A DNA stretch of 64,000 bases from Candidatus Methanomethylophilaceae archaeon. GTDB taxonomy: Archaea; Thermoplasmatota; Thermoplasmata; Methanomassiliicoccales; Methanomethylophilaceae. The notes below the pieces were generated by a model. It worked only from the letters and a program-made list of their open reading frames with translations, did no database searches and was not told the DNA's origin. Each line of letters opens with the position of its first letter. Position 1 is the stretch's first letter. The stretch lies in assembly GCA_035271165.1 (NCBI GenBank), contig DATERX010000028.1:1-64000 (forward strand). Reading direction: 5' to 3'. Positions 19 through 52,647 of the stretch are shown here, one piece after another. A program made the translations under genes and the position numbers.

Positions 19-2295
19 TTGGCACCTGGTTATTCATCCACGGGAACTGGCGAAATCATGTTGCCGACCGTCGGAGACACGACATTCACCATCCTAAATG
101 ATGACAAGGTCAGAATCTATAATGCAACACTCAGTGCCGAAGAAAGTCTCGTTGAATACAATGCTACGCTAAACTCGAAGTCTGACAAGCCCATCTCCGG
201 AACGGTGACGTTCTTCGGTGCCGACGGTCTGACGTTGACCTATGCGGCCGGTGACGACGGAATATTGTCCGCGAAACTGCCTAAAGGCGAATACACCGCA
301 TACGCAGTGGGCGATGACGGATCTTGCGCCATTAAGGAGATAACCGTATCCGATACGCCCGAAGACAACGTGGGTGAGAGTTTCAAGACCGACGACGGTC
401 GCAAGCTGACGGTATCGTTAACGTTCGCATCAGGTGCGGACGGTACGAAGGGACTTCCATTCAGGCAAGTCTCTGTGAAGATCGGAGATGACACGATATT
501 CGGAACCACGGGAACAGACGGTAAATCCATCATCATAATACCTAGCAACAAGGAGGCGACAGTCAGTGTAGCTGACGTCACCGAAGGTCCGGTATCCTGG
601 ACGGATTTCGAAGAGAGCGTTACAGCCGGAACATCCAGTGTATCCAAGACATTCAACGTGAGCATCGGAAAGATCGCTGAGTCCGAAATCGCTGAGTCCA
701 AAATAACGGTACCGGATGAAACATGGCTCTGGAATTACGGAACAACCGATCCTCCGAGCTATCACTTCAAGACCGGCGAGACGAAGGTCGTCACGCCCGG
801 CAAGTACAAATGCGTCGTCAAAGTCGATGAGGAGACGTACACTTACAGCGAAGTCAAGGTGTTCATAGGACAAACCAAGCTGATTGTAGATTCAGGTACT
901 GAAGTTGGGAGTCTGATTCTTGTAACAATAGACGAGGGCGAAGCTAAGGTGACTGTCGAAACAGACCCGAATAATGAGGGCGATACCCATTACAAGGTAA
1001 AGATGGAATCCGAAAACGATGTAAACTATCTGCTTAAGAGCGGAGCATCATACCAATTCAAAGCTGTAAAAGACGACAAGATCGCGTACGTCACGTTTAA
1101 CGGCACCGTATTGGATGAAACTACTTTCGATTTCAAAGACAAAGTTACTCTGAAAGGATACGTCGGCGTCGACGGAGACGGTACTGCAAGGGTCACGATA
1201 GGCACTAAAATTCTGTTCACCGATGTGAAAGACGGCGAATATGAGATGGACGTGCCTTCGGCTCCAGGCTCGGTTAATATATCGTTTAAAGTCAACGCTA
1301 AGCCCTCGGGTGCGATAGGGGAATGTGAATACACCGGAGACTTAATCGCGACGATACCGGCAGAGCCTGTCGATGGCATCGTTGTAACGAACGCTCAACT
1401 CACCGGTAATGGGGACCTGATCCAAGTTACCGACAAACCCATCCTGACTGTGAAAAACGTCACATCTGTTGTCAATGGGGAATTCAAGTTTGACCTGGAA
1501 GTCGACCCGGTGGTTGATGTTGGTACGAAGACGTACGCGATAAAGGCTATAGGTCCGTGGCAATTGGATAGATATTACACCGTGACCCTTAGCGGAACCG
1601 CCATATCCACTCTGTCCGATATATCCGGAACATTCGATCCCGATAAGATCGGCGATGGGGACTCCGAGATGAAAGTCTCCATTGTCGATTTGAAGGGCAC
1701 TACCGTGGCCACAGGAGAAATAGGCCATGGCTACGTCACTGTCGATAGTTCGAATAACAAGGTGACCGTGATGATCGCCGGCGAAGGGGGAAGGCCCGAT
1801 GTCAAGACCGATGACGAATACCTTTATGCGATAACGATAAGGAACGATGCAAACTACCTGATGAATGCCAGCATAACATTGGATGGTGCGATGCCAGGGG
1901 GTTGGATCCATACGATATCCGATGAGAACGGCCGCGTGATCGGCGCAACGGATTTCGATGTCGCAGGTTATTCGGACACGGTGCTCTATGTTAAGGTGAT
2001 GAACATCACAGGCCATGCCGCAGAGATACCTGAATTAAGCATCGAAGTTGCCGTATCATCATTATCGGAATCGCCCGAACTTAAGGACGACGAGGGTGGA
2101 AACAAGGTCACAATAAATCTCATTCCAAAGGAGTTGACCCTTGACACGTCGTTAAACGTCGGAGGCAGCAACATCTACGGCGAAGGTAATGCGATGCAGC
2201 CCGCGTTCTGGGTACTAACCCTGCTGAGCGTGGTATTCATCGTGCTGATTGTTTGGCTAGGTTCCAAGAGGGGGGTGTTCACACGAAGAAAGTAA
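19..2295 (+). CDS. Large cell-surface protein with C-terminal TM anchor; beta-rich, repetitive (Ig/PKD-like) and probably 5'-truncated by the window edge (frame is open back to nt 1; TTG at 19 is unlikely to be the true start)
   Basis: 758-aa ORF, T/G/D/V-rich and low in Cys. Ends in a hydrophobic helix followed by a basic tail (AFWVLTLLSVVFIVLIVWLGSKRGVFTRRK). Confidence 0.6.
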   Translation: MAPGYSSTGTGEIMLPTVGDTTFTILNDDKVRIYNATLSAEESLVEYNATLNSKSDKPISGTVTFFGADGLTLTYAAGDDGILSAKLPKGEYTAYAVGDDGSCAIKEITVSDTPEDNVGESFKTDDGRKLTVSLTFASGADGTKGLPFRQVSVKIGDDTIFGTTGTDGKSIIIIPSNKEATVSVADVTEGPVSWTDFEESVTAGTSSVSKTFNVSIGKIAESEIAESKITVPDETWLWNYGTTDPPSYHFKTGETKVVTPGKYKCVVKVDEETYTYSEVKVFIGQTKLIVDSGTEVGSLILVTIDEGEAKVTVETDPNNEGDTHYKVKMESENDVNYLLKSGASYQFKAVKDDKIAYVTFNGTVLDETTFDFKDKVTLKGYVGVDGDGTARVTIGTKILFTDVKDGEYEMDVPSAPGSVNISFKVNAKPSGAIGECEYTGDLIATIPAEPVDGIVVTNAQLTGNGDLIQVTDKPILTVKNVTSVVNGEFKFDLEVDPVVDVGTKTYAIKAIGPWQLDRYYTVTLSGTAISTLSDISGTFDPDKIGDGDSEMKVSIVDLKGTTVATGEIGHGYVTVDSSNNKVTVMIAGEGGRPDVKTDDEYLYAITIRNDANYLMNASITLDGAMPGGWIHTISDENGRVIGATDFDVAGYSDTVLYVKVMNITGHAAEIPELSIEVAVSSLSESPELKDDEGGNKVTINLIPKELTLDTSLNVGGSNIYGEGNAMQPAFWVLTLLSVVFIVLIVWLGSKRGVFTRRK

Positions 2296-6558: not shown

Positions 6559-7851
6559 ATGAGCTATTCCGAGTCACTATCTAAACTTCTGGCATCTGCA
6601 GGTGCGGCCGAAGGCTGTAAACTATCAATCAAAAGCAAAGGACGCGAATATACGGGGATATTGATGCCCCGGCACGACCTTAGCGCACTGGATACGCTGT
6701 TGTTGAAACTCGACAGCGGATACAACGTGGGCATCAGGATGCACCAGGATTCTAAAATCGAGGTATTAGGGGAACCAACCAGAGTCAAACTGGAACCTGA
6801 GGCTGTGAAACCCAAGAAGGGGTTGAGGAACCTGGTGATGATCGGGACCGGCGGGACGATATCCTGTGTTGTGGATTTCAAGACCGGTAAGATTCAGCCC
6901 GCGCTTACTGCCGCAGAGATGATCGATGCCGTGCCCGAGATAACCGAGATAGCGAACTTCGATACACGCGTACTCTTCTCGATGTACTCGGAAGGTATGG
7001 GCGTCGAGCACTGGCAGAAGATCGCATCCGCCGTTGAGGAAGAGATTAACAACGGTGCCGATGGGGTCATAATCCCACACGGCACCGATACGATGGGCTA
7101 CACCGCCGCCGCCTTATCATTCATGCTCAATGATGTAACAAAACCCGTTGTATTGGTCGGGGCCCAGAGATCCTCTGACAGGCCGTCCACCGATGCTATT
7201 GGGAACCTAAAGGCCAGTGCCAGGTTCTGTGTTGATGGGGATAGGGCTGGGGTTTTCGTTGTGATGCAGGAAGGATTGGGAGACGACCGTTTCGCTGTAC
7301 ATTGCGGTACACGCGTAAGGAAAATGCACACATCACGTCGCGACGCCTTCCGCAGTATCAACGCATCACCCGTCGCCATCGTAGACATAGAAGGGAAGAT
7401 CGAACATCTCACCGAAGGGCGGAAGGTCTCCAAAGGAAAGATCGATTCCAAGACGGACATGGAGGAGAAATGCATACTCCTCCAATATTTCCCCGGGATG
7501 GATCCTGCGATGTTCAGGGATGCGATACTTGGGAGCAAAGGCGTCGTGATAGCAGGCACCGGACTCGGTCACGTCAACCGTGACTTGGTCCCTCTCCTTG
7601 AGGAGGCGACGAATTCTGGGACGATAGTGGTAATGACATCCCAGTGTCTGGGGGGCGCGACCAACCATAACATTTACGGCACCGGTCACGAACTATCTGA
7701 TGCAGGAGTCATCACAGTGGGTGACATGCTGCCCGAGACCGCCTATGTCAAGCTCATGTGGACGCTGGCAAATTCCAACAGTAGAGATCAAGCGATAGAG
7801 CTGATGAAGGCCCCGCTTGCAGGCGAGACCAGTGACAGGAGGACGAGATGA
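6559..7851 (+). CDS. gatD: Glutamyl-tRNA(Gln) amidotransferase subunit D (asparaginase-like)
   Basis: Asparaginase signature VMIGTGGTISC; 430 aa; 4-nt overlap with downstream gatE. Confidence 0.85.
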   Translation: MSYSESLSKLLASAGAAEGCKLSIKSKGREYTGILMPRHDLSALDTLLLKLDSGYNVGIRMHQDSKIEVLGEPTRVKLEPEAVKPKKGLRNLVMIGTGGTISCVVDFKTGKIQPALTAAEMIDAVPEITEIANFDTRVLFSMYSEGMGVEHWQKIASAVEEEINNGADGVIIPHGTDTMGYTAAALSFMLNDVTKPVVLVGAQRSSDRPSTDAIGNLKASARFCVDGDRAGVFVVMQEGLGDDRFAVHCGTRVRKMHTSRRDAFRSINASPVAIVDIEGKIEHLTEGRKVSKGKIDSKTDMEEKCILLQYFPGMDPAMFRDAILGSKGVVIAGTGLGHVNRDLVPLLEEATNSGTIVVMTSQCLGGATNHNIYGTGHELSDAGVITVGDMLPETAYVKLMWTLANSNSRDQAIELMKAPLAGETSDRRTR

Positions 7852-42663: not shown

Positions 42664-44271
42664 ATGGATTTGAAGACTCTTCGTGAGATAGCCGACGTTG
42701 TGCAGGAGGCGGTATCGCTGATTCCCAAGCCATGCGACCGCGGGAACGAGATATGCATCGGCGACGACGGTACTCCCACATCGGAGATCGACAAGATAGC
42801 AGAGAATACGGTTTTGAACTATCTGGAATCTAACAAGATAAAGATAAACGTTCTAAGCGAGGAGATAGGGTTCGTAGATAACGGAGGATCAGAGATCCTA
42901 GTACTTGATCCGATAGACGGGACCAGCAACTCGATCGCGGAGATCCCGTTCTTTGCAATATCAATGGCCGTTGGAAAGGATTCCATGAACGGGATGCACA
43001 CAGCCCTAGTACGCAACCTTGCCACAGGAGACGAGTTCTGGGCCATCAAGGGCGAGGGCGCGTTCTTCAACGGAAGGAAAATACGAGTTAGAGAACCGGA
43101 TTTCATGGAATTATTCGCACTTATATACATGGGGAATGCGGCCCCCAACGAAGCGTTCATGATGGCCAAGAAGGTAAAGTCATCCCGTTCCTTGGGATGC
43201 GCATCATTGGAGATGTCGTTACTGGCCCTTGGAAGCGTTGATCTGTATTACATGAACACGACTCGTTACAACCGCGGAGTGCGCACGGTGGACATCGCAG
43301 CAAGTTCACTGATACTCAGAGAGGCGGGAGGGGAGGTTTATGATCTCGGAGGAAACAAACTGGACATGCCCTTGGACAACAGGGCGCATGCGAACTTCGT
43401 TGCATGTTCGGGCAAAGAAGTCTACGACCATGTGATGCGGCCTTACATACGGGAGCACGGGTCCGCTCGTTTCGCGATATATGCGAACGAGTACATCGAG
43501 AAGGCTGGCGAGTACACGCGCAGAGTATTCGATGCCCTCAAAGGAGAGACTGTCTCCTTGGACACGTCCGCGGCAAAACTACTGAACATGGAAGGAACGG
43601 TTCTCGATGATATTGATGCCGACATAGTAATAGTGATAGGGGGCGACGGTACGATACTCAGGGCTTTCCAGCATACTGATGCCGCTGTGATCGGAGTGAA
43701 CGCTGGAGGTGTCGGGTTCCTGGCGGAGATAGAACCTGACGAGATCGAGGAGAGCATAGCCCGCATATGCCGCGGAGAGTATACGGTGGAAAGAAGGTCG
43801 AAGCTCAAGACATGGTACAAGGGGGAATATCTGGTCGACGCGGTGAACGAGGCCGTCGTGCATACCGATTCGGTTGCAAAGATAAGACAGTACAAGATTT
43901 ATGTCAACGAACATCTAGCCACCGAGGTAAGGGCAGACGGAGTGATTGTATCGACCACAACGGGATCGACCTGTTACGCCATGAGCTTGGGAGCCCCCAT
44001 AACGGATCCCAATGTAGAGGCGTTCCTGATAGTACCCATGGCTGCGTTCAAGTTCGCATCCAGGCCATTCGTCGTACCTTCTACTGCCAAGATAACCATA
44101 GAGGCGGTAATGGACAAGGGATGTCTGATGGTAATTGACGGCCAACACGAATACGATATGGAAGGCGGGTCTATCGTGGAGTTCTCCAAGGCAGAGGATT
44201 ATGCACGCTTTATCAAACTGGATAAGGACTTCTATTCCCATGTTAGGGAAAAACTGGTGAATGCGATATGA
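42664..44271 (+). CDS. Bifunctional inositol-monophosphatase-family / NAD kinase fusion (NADP phosphatase::NAD kinase)
   Basis: N-terminal half has IMPase motifs (LDPIDGTSN). C-terminal half has NAD-kinase GGDGT, NE/D and DGVIVSTTTGSTCYAMSLGAPI motifs. Confidence 0.8.
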   Translation: MDLKTLREIADVVQEAVSLIPKPCDRGNEICIGDDGTPTSEIDKIAENTVLNYLESNKIKINVLSEEIGFVDNGGSEILVLDPIDGTSNSIAEIPFFAISMAVGKDSMNGMHTALVRNLATGDEFWAIKGEGAFFNGRKIRVREPDFMELFALIYMGNAAPNEAFMMAKKVKSSRSLGCASLEMSLLALGSVDLYYMNTTRYNRGVRTVDIAASSLILREAGGEVYDLGGNKLDMPLDNRAHANFVACSGKEVYDHVMRPYIREHGSARFAIYANEYIEKAGEYTRRVFDALKGETVSLDTSAAKLLNMEGTVLDDIDADIVIVIGGDGTILRAFQHTDAAVIGVNAGGVGFLAEIEPDEIEESIARICRGEYTVERRSKLKTWYKGEYLVDAVNEAVVHTDSVAKIRQYKIYVNEHLATEVRADGVIVSTTTGSTCYAMSLGAPITDPNVEAFLIVPMAAFKFASRPFVVPSTAKITIEAVMDKGCLMVIDGQHEYDMEGGSIVEFSKAEDYARFIKLDKDFYSHVREKLVNAI

Positions 44272-44654
44272 ATAGGAAGAAGATTTACGGGATACACATC
44301 GAATTGATAGACTCCTTTAACGAAGCCGCCAGATCCACATATCCTGACGAATTCCTCTGCATGCTGAGAGCTGACGAAGGAGTGATATCGGAGATGATAT
44401 TCATCCCCGGTACCGTATATGGCGATTCGCACAGTTTCATGAACGAATGGATGGCCCCGGTGGATTTCAGCCTGATAGGCTCCATCCATTCACATCCAGG
44501 GCATTCGAACGAACCCTCCGATGCGGACCTGAACTATTTCTCAAATTATGGAGGCGTGCATGTCATAACATGCAGGCCTTATGACCGTAACAGCTGGAAG
44601 GCCTACAACTCCAGAGGAGAGGTCCTAGATCTAGAGATAATCACTGACTTCTGA
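44268..44654 (+). CDS. JAB/MPN (JAMM) metalloprotease-domain protein
   Basis: HSHPGHSNEPSDAD matches the JAMM motif HxHx7Sx2D; 128 aa; 4-nt overlap with the upstream fusion gene. Confidence 0.75.
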   Translation: MNRKKIYGIHIELIDSFNEAARSTYPDEFLCMLRADEGVISEMIFIPGTVYGDSHSFMNEWMAPVDFSLIGSIHSHPGHSNEPSDADLNYFSNYGGVHVITCRPYDRNSWKAYNSRGEVLDLEIITDF

Positions 44655-45963
44655 GACCCTTGTTCACGATTTCCTTAGCTATCTCCAACAGACCTACGGC
44701 ATAGGCCTTGTCGCCTGCTTCGATCTTGATGTTGATTACCCCCTCATGATCGGGACGCTCCACCAGGAACCAGCCGCCGTCCATATCCACGCGCCATCCT
44801 CCAGCGTGCACAGCATTCTTGTAATCCAGGTCCTCGATCTCATTGGAGATTTTTCTGGACAGGGCCTCGACGCTTCCTTTACTCTGTATCCGAGTTTCAT
44901 CCGTAACGTAACTGGGCATCTCATCCAGAATACGCCTAAGGCTATCGGTGCCGGCAATCTTGGCAAGCATGCATCCAGCATATATCCCGTCCGGGCATCT
45001 CGTCATACCAGGCATTATGACGGTTCCGTTGCTCAAAGCACCGAAATCCGCCTGTTGCTCCTTCATGACCTCCGCCAAGGAGATAGAGTCCGGCTCACAT
45101 CTTATTATGCTTCTGCCCGCGGTCAAACCATCCTCACCCCAGAAGGCCGCATCCACCGCAGAGGACATATCTATGGGCACGACCAGTTTCTTCGGTTGCA
45201 TATGTTTCACTAGAAGCGCAAGCATGTCACTTCCCGACACGTATCTGGCCTCCTCGTCGATAAGTGCTACACGAGTCCCGTCCCCGTTGAGGAGTATGCC
45301 TATGCTACCTGGCATGGAACTTGTCGCTGCCTGCACATCCTTCGCCTCGGAAGGTCCGATATCAGATGATCTCGGAGAATAATTACGGTCCAAATGAGAG
45401 TTCACGCTCATCACGTCCGCGCCCGCGGCAGCCAACGCTTGGGGCGCGGCAAGGGACGCACTTCCGCATCCGCAATCAACCACGACGGGACAGTCTATAT
45501 CGCCGCACGCGTCCGCCACCCTCTCTATATAGCGTCTAACAACACCATCTACTCGGTGTATTTTATCGATTGATAAGTAGTTGGGAAGGGCCGCATTCTT
45601 ACTGTATTTTTCCAAAGACCTGATCTGTTCGTGATCGAACAGGGACCCGTCGGGATTACGTAGCAATATATCGCTGAAACTGCCGTAGACATCGGGTTCT
45701 CCTGCAATCGCACAACAATCCGACCTATTGGCTACCATTGCAATTGCCGGGGCAGGGGCATAACTCGCGTCGTATACCCTCGCCCCTACTGAGAGGAGGC
45801 CAGATACAAAAGCGTCCCGGATCATCCTACCGCTCCGGCTAAGGTCCATCCCTACAGTAACGTTGTTGTATGATGAGCCGACCGCCCTTCCCCTGAACAA
45901 AGCCCTCTCGGGAGTCATCATCTGTTCAGCTACGGAATCGTTCGCAATCTTGTTTACAGGCAT
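44641..45963 (-). CDS. Phosphohexomutase (PGM/PMM/GlmM) superfamily protein with all four catalytic motifs degenerate; probable pseudoenzyme
   Basis: Collinear with archaeal PMM (GLLSVG, APAPAI, VVVDCGCG conserved). Motifs changed: TASHNP to AGEPDV, DGDADR to NGDGTR, GEENGG to ALSNGT, RASGTEP to ERPDHEG. Confidence 0.65.
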   Translation of the reverse strand: MPVNKIANDSVAEQMMTPERALFRGRAVGSSYNNVTVGMDLSRSGRMIRDAFVSGLLSVGARVYDASYAPAPAIAMVANRSDCCAIAGEPDVYGSFSDILLRNPDGSLFDHEQIRSLEKYSKNAALPNYLSIDKIHRVDGVVRRYIERVADACGDIDCPVVVDCGCGSASLAAPQALAAAGADVMSVNSHLDRNYSPRSSDIGPSEAKDVQAATSSMPGSIGILLNGDGTRVALIDEEARYVSGSDMLALLVKHMQPKKLVVPIDMSSAVDAAFWGEDGLTAGRSIIRCEPDSISLAEVMKEQQADFGALSNGTVIMPGMTRCPDGIYAGCMLAKIAGTDSLRRILDEMPSYVTDETRIQSKGSVEALSRKISNEIEDLDYKNAVHAGGWRVDMDGGWFLVERPDHEGVINIKIEAGDKAYAVGLLEIAKEIVNKGLRSQ

Positions 45964-46135
45964 TGGAAAGTGATGGCGTTTCGTCGTTCATATTCCTTGT
46001 CATTGTTTTGTTTTCAAACAAAATAAATGTCCCAGACTGCCATTTCAACCCAAAAAATCAAGAATCTTTAAATACAATCAACGTAGATAATTCCCCAGGC
46101 GGGTAAGTCTGGCTTATCTGACGGAAGGGAAAAAA

Positions 46136-46369
46136 ATGGCTATGGAAAAAATTGATTTTGCAAAGGCACAGATGATTGCTAAGTCCAAGGGCCTTCAGCC
46201 CGGGCGGGTTAAGGGAACCCAAGGCGTTCAGTTCACAAAGGGCACCAATGACCGTCTATCGGTCATCTCATGGGAAGAGTTCGAGGCGTCACTCAGACAG
46301 AGAGGCCTCGCGATCTATGAGTCCGGTGGCTGGATGAAGATAATGAAGGATCAGCCTGTAAGTTGCTGA
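46136..46369 (+). CDS. Small hypothetical protein (77 aa)
   Basis: ORF with an upstream AT-rich region; no family recognised. Confidence 0.35.
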   Translation: MAMEKIDFAKAQMIAKSKGLQPGRVKGTQGVQFTKGTNDRLSVISWEEFEASLRQRGLAIYESGGWMKIMKDQPVSC

Positions 46370-46438: not shown

Positions 46439-46526
46439 CGCGGGGGTTGCCGAGCCTGGTTAAAGGCGATAGGTTCAGGGCCTATTCGTGTAGGCGTTCG
46501 TGGGTTCAAATCCCATCCCCCGCACC
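46439..46526 (+). tRNA. tRNA-Leu(CAG), class II
   Basis: Acceptor GCGGGGG/CCCCCGC, anticodon stem ATAGG/CCTAT with loop TTCAGGG, long variable arm, T-loop TTCAAAT, CCA encoded. Confidence 0.8.
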
Positions 46527-46714
46527 ACTCTGGATTTTTCTCGATAATTGAGTAATCCAATTATAATTCTATATAAAAAAATCATATCGGGCTCCGATGG
46601 AGATTTAAAATGACCCAGCGATGAAACTCGGTATGTTCTCATGTTAATAAAAACAATAGGTTTGAGAGACACTGCCTGATTAAATAGCCTTATTTCCGTA
46701 CAACTTCGATAAAT

Positions 46715-47143
46715 ATGATATGTACAAGATGCGGTTTTTCCAATCCAGACGGCACCAGGTATTGCACGTCATGCGGGAACGAGATGACGGACCGGCAAGG
46801 CGGGCCCAGATTCACAGAAGGCTACATTGACAATCAAATCTCACCTCAGAAGAGCATCGGTTTCGGGATTGTCTTTTCAGCATTGATCGTAGGATTGGGA
46901 CATCTTTACGCTGAAAAGATAGGCAAGGGGATCGCCCTATCCATCATATTCGGTGTCTTGATGATTATCACGATGACCTTCTACATGGAATGGATGTATT
47001 ACGGTTACCCATCGGGTGCTCTGTTTGCACTGATTTTCGGGATACCAGCGTTACTCCTGTGGATATGGACATTGTACGACGTAAGGGACACCATCAAGGA
47101 ATACAATCAACATCTACGTACGAGGGGCACACCTCCCTGGTGA
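46715..47143 (+). CDS. Zinc-ribbon + 2-3 TM membrane protein
   Basis: N-terminal CTRCGF-x9-CTSCG zinc ribbon, then hydrophobic helices. Confidence 0.5.
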   Translation: MICTRCGFSNPDGTRYCTSCGNEMTDRQGGPRFTEGYIDNQISPQKSIGFGIVFSALIVGLGHLYAEKIGKGIALSIIFGVLMIITMTFYMEWMYYGYPSGALFALIFGIPALLLWIWTLYDVRDTIKEYNQHLRTRGTPPW

Positions 47144-50211: not shown

Positions 50212-52647
50212 TCAGAAGAAATCGTCCAGGACGGTCTTCTTGTTCCTTTTCGGCTGTTCGGAGGTTTTAGTAACATTCCTCTTCTTAGGTGCAGCGTCGG
50301 CATCAGGCTCGAAATCCATATCAAAGGTTGCCTGTTGACTGCCCATCATGAGATCCCGCTCGCTCCATCCGAAGACCTCCGTGATCCTTGAGGCGGTTTG
50401 TGCCAGACGTTCAGCATAATAGCGATAATCGGGGCGATACTCGAACTTCTTCCCGCTTATGAAGGGCTCCACCTGCTGAGGTACTATCGACCCATCGGTG
50501 ACAATCCATGACACCTTCATACCAGGTATGAACTCGTACCCTAGGGCCATCATCTTCCGTGCCGCCTGCACGTTGGCCATCCTATCAGGGTTCGCATAGG
50601 CGTCGACCCCCTTACAGGTTCTCGATATCACAAGTTCCCTGGGATCCACATTACCGCTCTGCGCGTTCTCCACGACCCCTCTGACATACGCAACCGCACC
50701 CTCGTTATCCTCGTCCAATATCTTCTCGAACAGGTTCTCGAGGAGCTCGCTCTGTAGGTCGAAGGAATCCGAACGGCGAATCTCATATCCGCGCACAAGA
50801 AGGTCGTCCTCCTTGTTCGGCCACACCACGCGACCGACGTATCTCTTTTTCTTACCGTGGGAGAACAGAGGTTCGATCAGTTTCTCGAACTCAAGTATCG
50901 CGCCCTCGGTAGTGAACTTCTCCGCCAGGGATTTTCCGAACGTGACGGAACCTTCAAGGTCGTTGGTGGGGGACTGTATGAACAGCGAGTCCGTATCCGA
51001 ATAGATCACGCCGATGTCGTCAACCTCTAATTCACGGATTATGCCTTTGACGTTACCTCTGGCGAAAGATGTGATGGCGGATCCGATGTTCTTGTCGGTG
51101 AATCTGTAGAACGAGGATGCAAAAACCCCGTAGAAGGTGTTCATAATGATCTTCACGGCCTCCTGGAGACCGTCAAGATAGTGGTACTCATGAGCGTCCT
51201 TTGTCAATTTCATCGAGGACCTGATCTCGTCCCTATGGGTCATCAGGTCCAAGAGGATGGCTGGAAGTAAGCCTTCGCGATGTTCCTTGGACAAGAATCT
51301 GGCTCCCGAAGGGCTTATTATTTCTCCGTCATCGGAAAGGGTGGTGAAACAAATGTTCTTGGAGATTATCAGGGAAGGGTACATGGATTTAAAGTCAAGG
51401 ACTACAACCCAGTGATAAAGTCCTGGTTTCATCATGTGGACATATCCACCTTCTATCTGGTCCCCCCTTGCACTTCTCCCACCCATCATAGGTATGCCGA
51501 CCTTATGCCGGTCGGCGGAACGGATCAGCAAGGAATCCACAAGCTGTGAGGATCCCGACGTCAGCACATCCTCCACGGGAAGTCTCGAAACGGCCGCCAG
51601 GTCCATGTTCTTCCTTATAGAATCGATCTCATGCAATATCCGGTATGCAAGTTCCGCGTCCTTGGTGCAGTATTCCAGGACCTTCTCTCTGTTGTCCCTC
51701 CATTCGGCGTCCATCTCCGAGGGGTTTACATCCATCTTGCCCTCGCCCAACAGTTGCATCGCAACGGCGTTGAGGGTCTCCTGCTTAGGTCGGAGCTCCA
51801 TCTTGGCAGCCCACCAGGCATCCACCACGAGCCTTCCGTTGACGCGCCAGAACCTGTTGCTTATCAGTTTGGGCTGACTGCCGTCCCTTCCCCAGGGCAT
51901 GGCATCGATGAAACCAATAGCATCCGCGCGTTCCTTTATCTTCTTTATATCGTAATTATCGATGTTGTATCCAGTCAGCACGTCCGGATCCTCTTTCCTT
52001 ATGAGGTCCGCAAACTTCTCGATGATCTCATGCTCGGAACCGGTGATGGGTTCGCACTCTCTCAACGGCCCGTCCTCGGATATGACCGCGCAGATACAAT
52101 ATAGATAATCATGTTCGATGCTGTTCTCCAGATCGAAGGACATGACCTTGATTGGAGGGGTGAACGGTTCAAGGTCCTCATGGTGGTCCATCTCCACGAT
52201 CAGGTCGGTAAAGTATCTGCCTGTGACCTCTTTACCTATGACTTTGAAACATGCCCCTAGGTCAAGATCGTATATGAATCTGAGATGGAACGGTATGTCC
52301 GCGGACAATATGGTGAAGCCGTCCTTTCTGGCCTTGTTCCTGTAGTCGGACATTTTGAAAGGATATTTCACCGTGATCTTCAACACGTCCTTCTGTTCGC
52401 CGAGGTACAAGAGTGTGTCGCGTTCTGTGGATATGACTTCCCTATCCAGCTTGATCTTGGTTTCAGCGGCAGGCGTGGGATCGATTATGTAGAAATATGG
52501 TTTGAAACCTCTTGAAAGGATCGTGATGGATTTCCCTTCACGGGTCCTCCCGTACAGTTCCATGACCGTATCTTCGCCTTCCTGTACGTAGGTGGCGGCC
52601 AATAATCTGACATCCCATGTTTTCATATTATCACTTGTTCGCAACAA
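50212..52647 (-). CDS. polB: Family B DNA polymerase
   Basis: Exo I FDLE(N), Pol motifs incl. YSDTDS; 811 aa, continuous, so no intein. Confidence 0.9.
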   Translation of the reverse strand: MLRTSDNMKTWDVRLLAATYVQEGEDTVMELYGRTREGKSITILSRGFKPYFYIIDPTPAAETKIKLDREVISTERDTLLYLGEQKDVLKITVKYPFKMSDYRNKARKDGFTILSADIPFHLRFIYDLDLGACFKVIGKEVTGRYFTDLIVEMDHHEDLEPFTPPIKVMSFDLENSIEHDYLYCICAVISEDGPLRECEPITGSEHEIIEKFADLIRKEDPDVLTGYNIDNYDIKKIKERADAIGFIDAMPWGRDGSQPKLISNRFWRVNGRLVVDAWWAAKMELRPKQETLNAVAMQLLGEGKMDVNPSEMDAEWRDNREKVLEYCTKDAELAYRILHEIDSIRKNMDLAAVSRLPVEDVLTSGSSQLVDSLLIRSADRHKVGIPMMGGRSARGDQIEGGYVHMMKPGLYHWVVVLDFKSMYPSLIISKNICFTTLSDDGEIISPSGARFLSKEHREGLLPAILLDLMTHRDEIRSSMKLTKDAHEYHYLDGLQEAVKIIMNTFYGVFASSFYRFTDKNIGSAITSFARGNVKGIIRELEVDDIGVIYSDTDSLFIQSPTNDLEGSVTFGKSLAEKFTTEGAILEFEKLIEPLFSHGKKKRYVGRVVWPNKEDDLLVRGYEIRRSDSFDLQSELLENLFEKILDEDNEGAVAYVRGVVENAQSGNVDPRELVISRTCKGVDAYANPDRMANVQAARKMMALGYEFIPGMKVSWIVTDGSIVPQQVEPFISGKKFEYRPDYRYYAERLAQTASRITEVFGWSERDLMMGSQQATFDMDFEPDADAAPKKRNVTKTSEQPKRNKKTVLDDFF

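Follow-up and report, generated by a model that had tools for sequence, protein, structure and literature searches.

Why would an archaeon keep a gene for a full-length enzyme from which the active site has disappeared? The question is raised by a gene at 44,641–45,963, on the minus strand, of a 64,000-nt stretch of DNA from a Candidatus Methanomethylophilaceae archaeon (contig DATERX010000028.1, assembly GCA_035271165.1; hereafter the window). An earlier analysis of its letters and open reading frames (ORFs), the sequence-only reading, had described the product as a phosphohexomutase-family paralog with mutated catalytic motifs and as a likely pseudoenzyme. The explanation that we favor, and consider probable, is that the gene descends directly and in place from archaeal glmM and has been retained as a pseudoenzyme whose accessory role would be carried out through its fold rather than through catalysis. 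For brevity, we refer to the product as the dead GlmM.

A phosphohexomutase fold without an intact active site

The ORF has an ATG start and encodes 440 aa. Residues 11–437 are collinear with the phosphoglucomutase of T. kodakarensis (9du5; E 2e-35 in HMMER) and likewise with the phosphomannomutase/phosphoglucomutase of P. horikoshii (1wqa; E about 1e-35), with an identity of ~26% to these enzymes. The best NCBIfam match is TIGR03990 (Arch_GlmM), which covers the full length at 199.8 bits, under the equivalog cutoff of 439. Among the Pfam PGM_PMM domains, I (33.9 bits) and II (37.8 bits) are over threshold, III reaches 20.6 bits against a threshold of 20.7 and IV is undetected. An AlphaFold model computed from a 43-sequence alignment has four domains (pLDDT 89, pTM 0.88) and superimposes on 9du5 and 1wqa with a TM score of 0.86 in Foldseek. 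There are 89 PDB matches to this model at E ≤ 1e-3, and the best 50 of the 89 are all phosphohexomutase-fold proteins. By its predicted fold, four alpha/beta domains round a central cleft, the dead GlmM belongs to the alpha-D-phosphohexomutase superfamily. The end-to-end HMMER match agrees with the collinearity to archaeal phosphomannomutase/GlmM proposed in the sequence-only reading, and the strings GLLSVG, APAPAI and VVVDCGCGSASLAAP, quoted there as conserved, are all present.

The active-site motifs are a different matter. Their replacements, read from HMMER and MAFFT alignments, are located in the window as follows:

44641–45963, minus strand: dead GlmM ortholog with a four-domain phosphohexomutase fold (ORF, HMM and structure alignment, synteny with intact glmM)
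45928–45963, minus strand: N-terminus, MPVNKIANDSVA; the canonical FG(T/S)SGIRG is absent and its invariant Arg is gone
45685–45702, minus strand: former phosphoserine loop, residues 88–93; TASHNP is replaced by GEPDVY
45271–45288, minus strand: former Mg2+ loop, residues 226–231; DGDADR is replaced by NGDGTR
45025–45042, minus strand: former sugar-binding loop, residues 308–313; GGEPSG is replaced by GALSNG
44740–44760, minus strand: former phosphate-binding loop of domain 4, residues 402–408; RxSGTEP is replaced by ERPDHEG

In the phosphoserine loop the catalytic Ser is replaced by Pro90 and the His by Asp91, and the Lys that follows the loop has become Leu. One of the three Asp ligands of the Mg2+ loop is left (the middle one), and the Arg of this loop also survives. 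The conserved Glu of the sugar-binding loop corresponds to Leu310, and the ERPDHEG segment shows no conservation among orthologs. Judged by sequence, none of the phosphoserine, Mg2+, sugar-binding and phosphate-binding loops appears to be that of an active enzyme, and because the protein lacks the residues on which phosphohexomutase chemistry depends, mutase activity would be expected to have been lost. The two alignments agree with the earlier claim that four active-site motifs and the N-terminal GT.GVRG motif had gone, with a correction of register in the Ser loop: the catalytic Ser aligns to Pro90, not to a Gly as had been proposed. They restore none of the catalytic Ser and Asp positions except the middle Asp of the Mg2+ loop. 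The picture of a full-length, folded and catalytically disabled homolog is thus upheld, as far as the four-domain model and the replaced motifs can predict it.

The locus and its intact counterparts

The origin of the gene can be read from its neighbors, which in the window are:

42664–44271, plus strand: bifunctional inositol-monophosphatase (IMPase)/NAD-kinase gene, a syntenic marker (annotation, synteny)
44268–44654, plus strand: Prok-JAB (JAMM) gene, convergent with dead glmM (domain annotation, synteny)
45964–46135, no strand: divergent intergenic region of 172 nt with putative A/T-rich TATA-like stretches (read from the sequence only)
46136–46369, plus strand: gene for a small conserved protein of 72–77 aa, the locus anchor and divergent neighbor of both intact and dead glmM

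Down to 26% identity of the dead GlmM, orthologous loci keep the order small gene (divergent), dead glmM, Prok-JAB (convergent), IMPase/NAD kinase, fibrillarin, NUDIX, S15 and DHH. With the small gene as an anchor, 80 loci were recovered from metagenome contigs. A near-full-length degenerate gene is found at 45 of them, and at six the position of dead glmM is taken by a fully canonical enzyme (LFGSSGIRG, TASHNP, DGDGDR, GGEPSG and RxSGTEP). TauE, THUMP and L15e lie upstream of the intact loci, the same as in the window. Three of the six contigs (L096, L114 and L126) reach far enough to show the downstream side, where intact glmM is followed by an archaeal glmU (TIGR03992, 522.7 bits against a cutoff of 292) and then by the JAB and NAD-kinase genes. 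The three intact positional orthologs that were scanned with TIGR03990 score 443–462 bits, over the cutoff, and the scores fall from there to 362 bits for a homolog discussed below (P0181), 200 for the window gene and 120–160 for other degenerate members.

The 1.23-kb glmU insertion is limited to the three intact loci that reach JAB. At 89 degenerate loci the 3′ end of the gene lies within 150 nt of the 3′ end of JAB with no glmU between them, and neither GlmU nor GlmS has a homolog in any degenerate locus examined. In the window, where neither a GlmU nor a GlmS homolog was found, the 3′ ends of dead glmM (minus strand) and Prok-JAB (plus strand) overlap by 14 nt (44641–44654) at the site that glmU occupies in intact lineages; the overlap resembles a scar left by a tight deletion. 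Loss of the active site and loss of glmU therefore coincide at this locus. The glmM–glmU adjacency recurs in another Thermoplasmata genome and in Chloroflexota, which makes this pairing the general ancestral arrangement.

Because related lineages have an intact archaeal glmM in this position, gene order and sequence indicate that the dead gene is best described as a positional ortholog of archaeal glmM. The term paralog, used in the sequence-only reading, is not supported, as no duplication is needed. Using tblastn, we found no second phosphohexomutase homolog within the 64-kb window, and searches from canonical relatives and, as far as its word index reached, with a profile of the degenerate family turned up no intact phosphohexomutase attributable to the Methanomethylophilaceae. 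The search from the nearest canonical match (P0020) returned GlmMs of Chloroflexota/Dehalococcoidia and is thus uninformative on the Methanomethylophilaceae lineage; when the clusters of ten canonical representatives closest to the protein were looked up, one carried the name ‘Thermoplasmata archaeon’ and none that of a member of the Methanomassiliicoccales.

One homolog, P0181, stands between the two conditions. It occupies this locus, from which glmU is absent, and is half-degenerate, with TAPNNP and DGNGSR in place of the phosphoserine and Mg2+ motifs, yet with GGEPSG and R-I-S-G-S-E kept. A distance tree forms a ladder that leads from the outgroups to the intact orthologs, then to P0181, to P0180/P0185 and finally to all degenerate forms.

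A family of degenerate orthologs

A protein identical to the dead GlmM of the window is encoded in a Candidatus Methanomethylophilaceae metagenome-assembled genome (MAG). With each GTDB species represented by a single genome, a scan yielded 38 loci, nearly all labeled Methanomethylophilaceae, Methanomethylophilus, Methanoplasma, Methanogranum or similar. Intact ORFs were found in 41 of 42 extracted orthologs; the lone exception, L022, has one frameshift and comes from a long-read chromosome. In 43 of 43 tabulated sequences Pro occupies the Ser position, the Mg2+ loop reads N-G-D-G-T-R or a near variant and the sugar-binding loop reads G-A-[LM]-x-[DN]-G. The degenerate pattern recurs at another 45 metagenome loci and is thus no product of chance. 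When 1.84 billion representatives were searched exhaustively with HMMER, ~42 more clusters (50% identity) in which the sites are degenerate came up among the best 129 full-length matches, which were examined. These clusters fall together in a distance tree, and their named members are all Methanomethylophilaceae or ‘Methanomassiliicoccaceae’ MAGs. In total, about 130 degenerate relatives are known from Methanomassiliicoccales-type genomes and metagenomes, almost all of them open ORFs, and the gene is not an isolated case of frameshifted decay.

Several individual records deserve mention. The frameshift of L022 (OY781044.1, a complete chromosome) lies near residue 370, at ~7116–7155 of the locus, and the near-identical L020 is intact; it could be an error of long-read assembly or else a true pseudogenization of recent date. 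Two records, L038 (CAVGRR010000056.1) and P0368 (NCA73918.1), are labeled ‘Eggerthellaceae bacterium’ and ‘Gammaproteobacteria bacterium’ despite an archaeal locus or protein, and are probably mis-binned MAG contigs. Four proteins, P0210 and P0434 (611 aa) and P0269 and P0273 (about 830 aa), carry a long N-terminal extension fused before the phosphohexomutase module; of the four, P0210, with canonical motifs, shares 51% identity with the intact Methanomassiliicoccales-type GlmM.

Conservation was computed on a non-redundant set of 69 degenerate sequences and compared with canonical enzymes. The catalytic and ligand-binding positions that are 90–100% invariant in canonical enzymes are all lost or variable in the 69. 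Mean conservation by domain, relative to the canonical enzymes, ranges from 80% (domain 1) to 96% (domain 4). Only a handful of positions (N226, G229, G219, P257, P263, D418 and Y421) show conservation peculiar to the degenerate family, which is strongest for D418 (100%) and Y421 (99%). These two residues lie in the following segment:

44701–44721, minus strand: EAGDKAY, the start of the C-terminal helix

The degenerate proteins are more acidic than the intact ones, with a median pI of 4.9 versus 5.7.

Selection and rate of divergence

For genome pairs with unsaturated dS, the ratio dN/dS (omega) of dead glmM is 0.036–0.11. The window gene compared with its closest ortholog, L048, has dN 0.100, dS 1.12 and omega 0.09. 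The same genome pairs gave the following values for neighboring genes and for a control:

Fibrillarin: omega 0.02–0.07
IMPase/NAD kinase: omega 0.03–0.07
DHH: omega 0.05–0.15
JAB: omega 0.03–0.05
Spurious antisense ORFs (control): omega >1

Since omega lies within the range of its housekeeping neighbors, the reading frame of dead glmM is kept by purifying selection of ordinary strength. This comparison, along with the 41 of 42 intact orthologs, sustains the earlier proposal that the gene is not in recent decay. As an enzyme homolog that lacks catalytic residues and is under purifying selection, the dead GlmM would qualify as a pseudoenzyme.

Purifying selection has not made the protein slow to change. 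Over long evolutionary distances the dead GlmM is the fastest-diverging gene product of the block (26–36% identity where neighbors are 50–66% identical), and after loss of the active site its divergence has run at about twice the rate of the neighbors. Intact GlmM orthologs are 49–60% identical to one another, in step with their neighbors.

Explanations for the retention of dead GlmM

We envisage the following history. In the ancestor of the Methanomassiliicoccales the small gene would have been divergent from a glmM–glmU pair, with JAB and IMPase/NADK converging on it. On the lineage to the Methanomethylophilaceae, glmU would have been deleted from the locus and GlmM would have lost, apparently stepwise, its phosphoserine, two of the three Mg2+ ligands, the sugar-binding Glu, the phosphate loop and the N-terminal Arg. 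The dead GlmM then diverged about twice as fast as its neighbors, and several lineages have deleted the gene. Where it survives, it may have done so through a role in protein–protein binding or regulation, present beside catalysis in the ancestral GlmM and still useful once the amino-sugar module was gone. Binding or regulation of this kind would be the most likely mode of action, for which the complex of bacterial GlmM with the c-di-AMP cyclase offers a precedent.

A number of observations weigh against retention as a pseudoenzyme with an accessory role. The bootstrap values for a single loss, 67% and 52%, are modest. In five anchor loci dead glmM is wholly deleted and the small gene comes straight after JAB; one of these is from an organism closely related to that of the window, with an NAD kinase 84% identical, and the rest are more distant. 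Three states of the locus are thus found: intact glmM–glmU, dead glmM alone and neither. Several independent deletions of dead glmM are likely, probably at least three. Because five lineages have deleted the gene, its role is not essential and is dispensable in some backgrounds, and it could be weak enough to fit a slow route to loss. The loops G-x-P-[DN] and NGDGTR are strongly conserved within Methanomethylophilaceae orthologs, and such replacement loops could form a lineage-specific ligand site instead of being purely structural. Any function is predicted from selection together with motif loss. The surrounding block is housekeeping, dead glmM is monocistronic and the context offers no functional clue, with no sugar-nucleotide, glycosyltransferase or DAC-domain genes among the annotated ORFs of the 64-kb window.

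The deletions also fit an explanation that we consider unlikely, namely that the gene is a relic of the lost pathway awaiting a slow deletion, without a specific function, with low dN/dS produced by selection against a misfolded or toxic expressed product. The three locus states would then form a degradation series, and the probable three or more independent complete deletions, the standing of dead glmM as the fastest-diverging gene of the block and the frameshifted copy in L022 would all fit. Against this, dN/dS of 0.04–0.11 matches the values for fibrillarin, NAD kinase and DHH across these pairs of genomes, the clade-specific D418 and Y421 are about 100% conserved and about 130 intact 1.3-kb ORFs persist where neighbors are only 50–60% identical; a neutral ORF would not stay open for so long in compact archaeal genomes. 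The conserved loops raise another alternative, to which we give little weight: the protein may still be an enzyme, of new chemistry or substrate, with G-x-P-[DN], N-G-D-G-T-R and G-A-[LM]-x-[DN]-G forming a Methanomethylophilaceae-specific site in the old cleft. NGDGTR is nearly invariant in 43 orthologs, G-x-P-[DN/E] is kept down to 32% identity and N226, G229 and T230 are among the most conserved positions of the wider set. However, the Mg2+-loop position varies across the order (NGDGTR, DRIGSR, NRTGTA, NSDGTK and SHDGGR), as does the Ser loop in the wider ortholog set (SECPTY, TEYRGY and AGR--), and because the former active-site loops differ between subclades in this way, with no common catalytic constellation, a conserved new catalytic site is not favored. 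No nucleophile, full metal site or phosphate-binding loop is left, and the conserved Gly, Asn and Pro are equally explained by the structure of domain-core loops.

It is also conceivable, at a similarly low probability, that the dead GlmM is a prozyme, a special case of the favored explanation in which the dead subunit heterodimerizes with and tunes an intact phosphohexomutase from another place in the genome. In favor of this, the predicted fold is retained, and with it potential oligomer interfaces, and regulation of active paralogs is common among pseudoenzymes. Two glmM copies have been reported in Methanosarcinales (PMC9723798), so that multiple phosphohexomutases per archaeal genome are common. 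Against it, the 64-kb window holds no second homolog, the searches made gave none attributable to the Methanomethylophilaceae, and domain 1, the dimer interface in related phosphohexomutases, is the domain least conserved relative to canonical enzymes (ratio 0.80).

Neighboring genes and other features of the window

The small protein encoded next to dead glmM has the consensus MxMEKID..KA..IA..KGL.PG.VKGT.GVQFTKG.N.RL.VI.W.EFE..L..R.LAIYESGGWMKIMKA and is the most conserved gene product of the block, at 56–89% identity where neighbors are 50–66% identical. It has at least 539 relatives in metagenome contigs. It matches no Pfam family and no PDB sequence, and its single-sequence AlphaFold model (pLDDT 51) is too poor for use. 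We considered whether it could be a ubiquitin-like partner of the JAB protease and rejected this possibility, as it has no C-terminal Gly-Gly and accompanies both intact and dead glmM.

A tRNA-Leu(CAG) gene (46440–46527, plus strand) lies between the small conserved gene and a gene for a zinc-ribbon membrane protein (46715–47143), and six further tRNA genes are scattered across the window. Four ORFs have no Pfam match at E ≤ 1e-5:

19–2295, plus strand: 758 aa
25407–26945, minus strand: 512 aa
26950–27888, minus strand: 312 aa
58953–60089, minus strand: 378 aa

The ORF after 19–2295 (plus strand) has a CARDB domain, which suggests surface proteins. In GCA_016283255.1 (L049, 8407–9396), fibrillarin and the downstream NUDIX are called as one 329-aa fusion; the window and most relatives have them as two genes side by side. 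A contig with a 100% identical dead GlmM (L001, 470–5216; ERR1193289 k127_233323) carries MoxR-like AAA/MCM-VWA and SIR2_2 genes beside L15e, at a position where the window has DNA polymerase B (50212–52647). This region may be a strain-variable, defense-like island.

Relation to known systems and implications

The closest comparison is with archaeal GlmM (TIGR03990) itself, with which the dead GlmM shares gene lineage, locus, length and four-domain fold, and from which it differs in its score (199.8 bits against 439), in the loss of the catalytic residues and in the absence of the partner glmU from the locus. Similarly, 1WQA and 9DU5 are the closest solved structures (TM 0.86, with whole-chain collinearity), but these are active enzymes with TASHNP, DGDADR, GEENGG and RASGTEP, none of which is intact in the dead GlmM. 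Structures of vertebrate PGM5 (6Y8X–6Y8Z) are distant Foldseek matches of the model. PGM5 (aciculin) has a phosphohexomutase fold and is reported to lack mutase activity and to serve as a structural or adhesion protein. It is thus, as we propose for the dead GlmM, a superfamily member retained for a non-catalytic role. PGM5, however, is a eukaryotic paralog that arose by duplication of PGM1 and keeps most active-site motifs, whereas the dead GlmM is an archaeal ortholog that has lost them all, apparently once the pathway had gone.

Complexes of GlmM with CdaA/DacA (PDB 7OLH, 7OJS and 9G69) are also among the fold matches of the model. Bacterial GlmM inhibits this c-di-AMP cyclase, an instance of regulatory binding by the GlmM fold that is independent of catalysis (PMC6368335). 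The bacterial protein differs from the dead GlmM in being fully active, and no cyclase gene is linked to dead glmM in the window. We know of no interaction between an archaeal GlmM and a cyclase. A bolder extension, which we regard as quite improbable, is that a second, non-catalytic function is ancestral to archaeal GlmM, such as control of a signaling or biosynthetic partner by analogy with the bacterial inhibition of the cyclase, and that the Methanomethylophilaceae protein would be a natural separation-of-function allele, retaining that function alone since UDP-GlcNAc synthesis was given up.

Among methanogens that live with hosts, genes for nucleotide sugars and glycosyltransferases tend to be lost, and host-associated Methanomassiliicoccales have fewer glycosyltransferases (PMC9723798), a published trend that fits the loss of the enzymatic role of GlmM. 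Methanimicrococcus blatticola has lost glmS, glmU and many glycosyltransferases and has retained a glmM homolog, but the latter is likely a working enzyme (Glc-6-P to Glc-1-P), with no active-site loss reported (PMC9723798). The searchable literature yielded nothing direct on a dead phosphohexomutase in archaea or on glm genes in Methanomassiliicoccales. Annotation of the family is divided between hypothetical (PGAP) and phosphoglucosamine mutase (IMG), and metabolic reconstructions that credit the Methanomethylophilaceae proteins with the GlmM step are probably wrong.

Pseudoenzymes, and a non-catalytic PGM5, are already known; what is unusual here is that the evolutionary series is preserved and that an ortholog rather than a duplicate is affected. 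The locus would offer a clean natural example of the origin of a pseudoenzyme, with one syntenic position found in four states (an intact glmM–glmU operon, a half-degenerate intermediate, a fully dead gene and complete deletion), all inside a single order of archaea, with methanogens of the human gut and the rumen among its members. Most of the family retains, under selection, a GlmM that is folded yet inert, which points to another function for the archaeal GlmM scaffold. If the separation-of-function proposal is true, the dead GlmM would be a tool for finding and studying a moonlighting role of archaeal GlmM.

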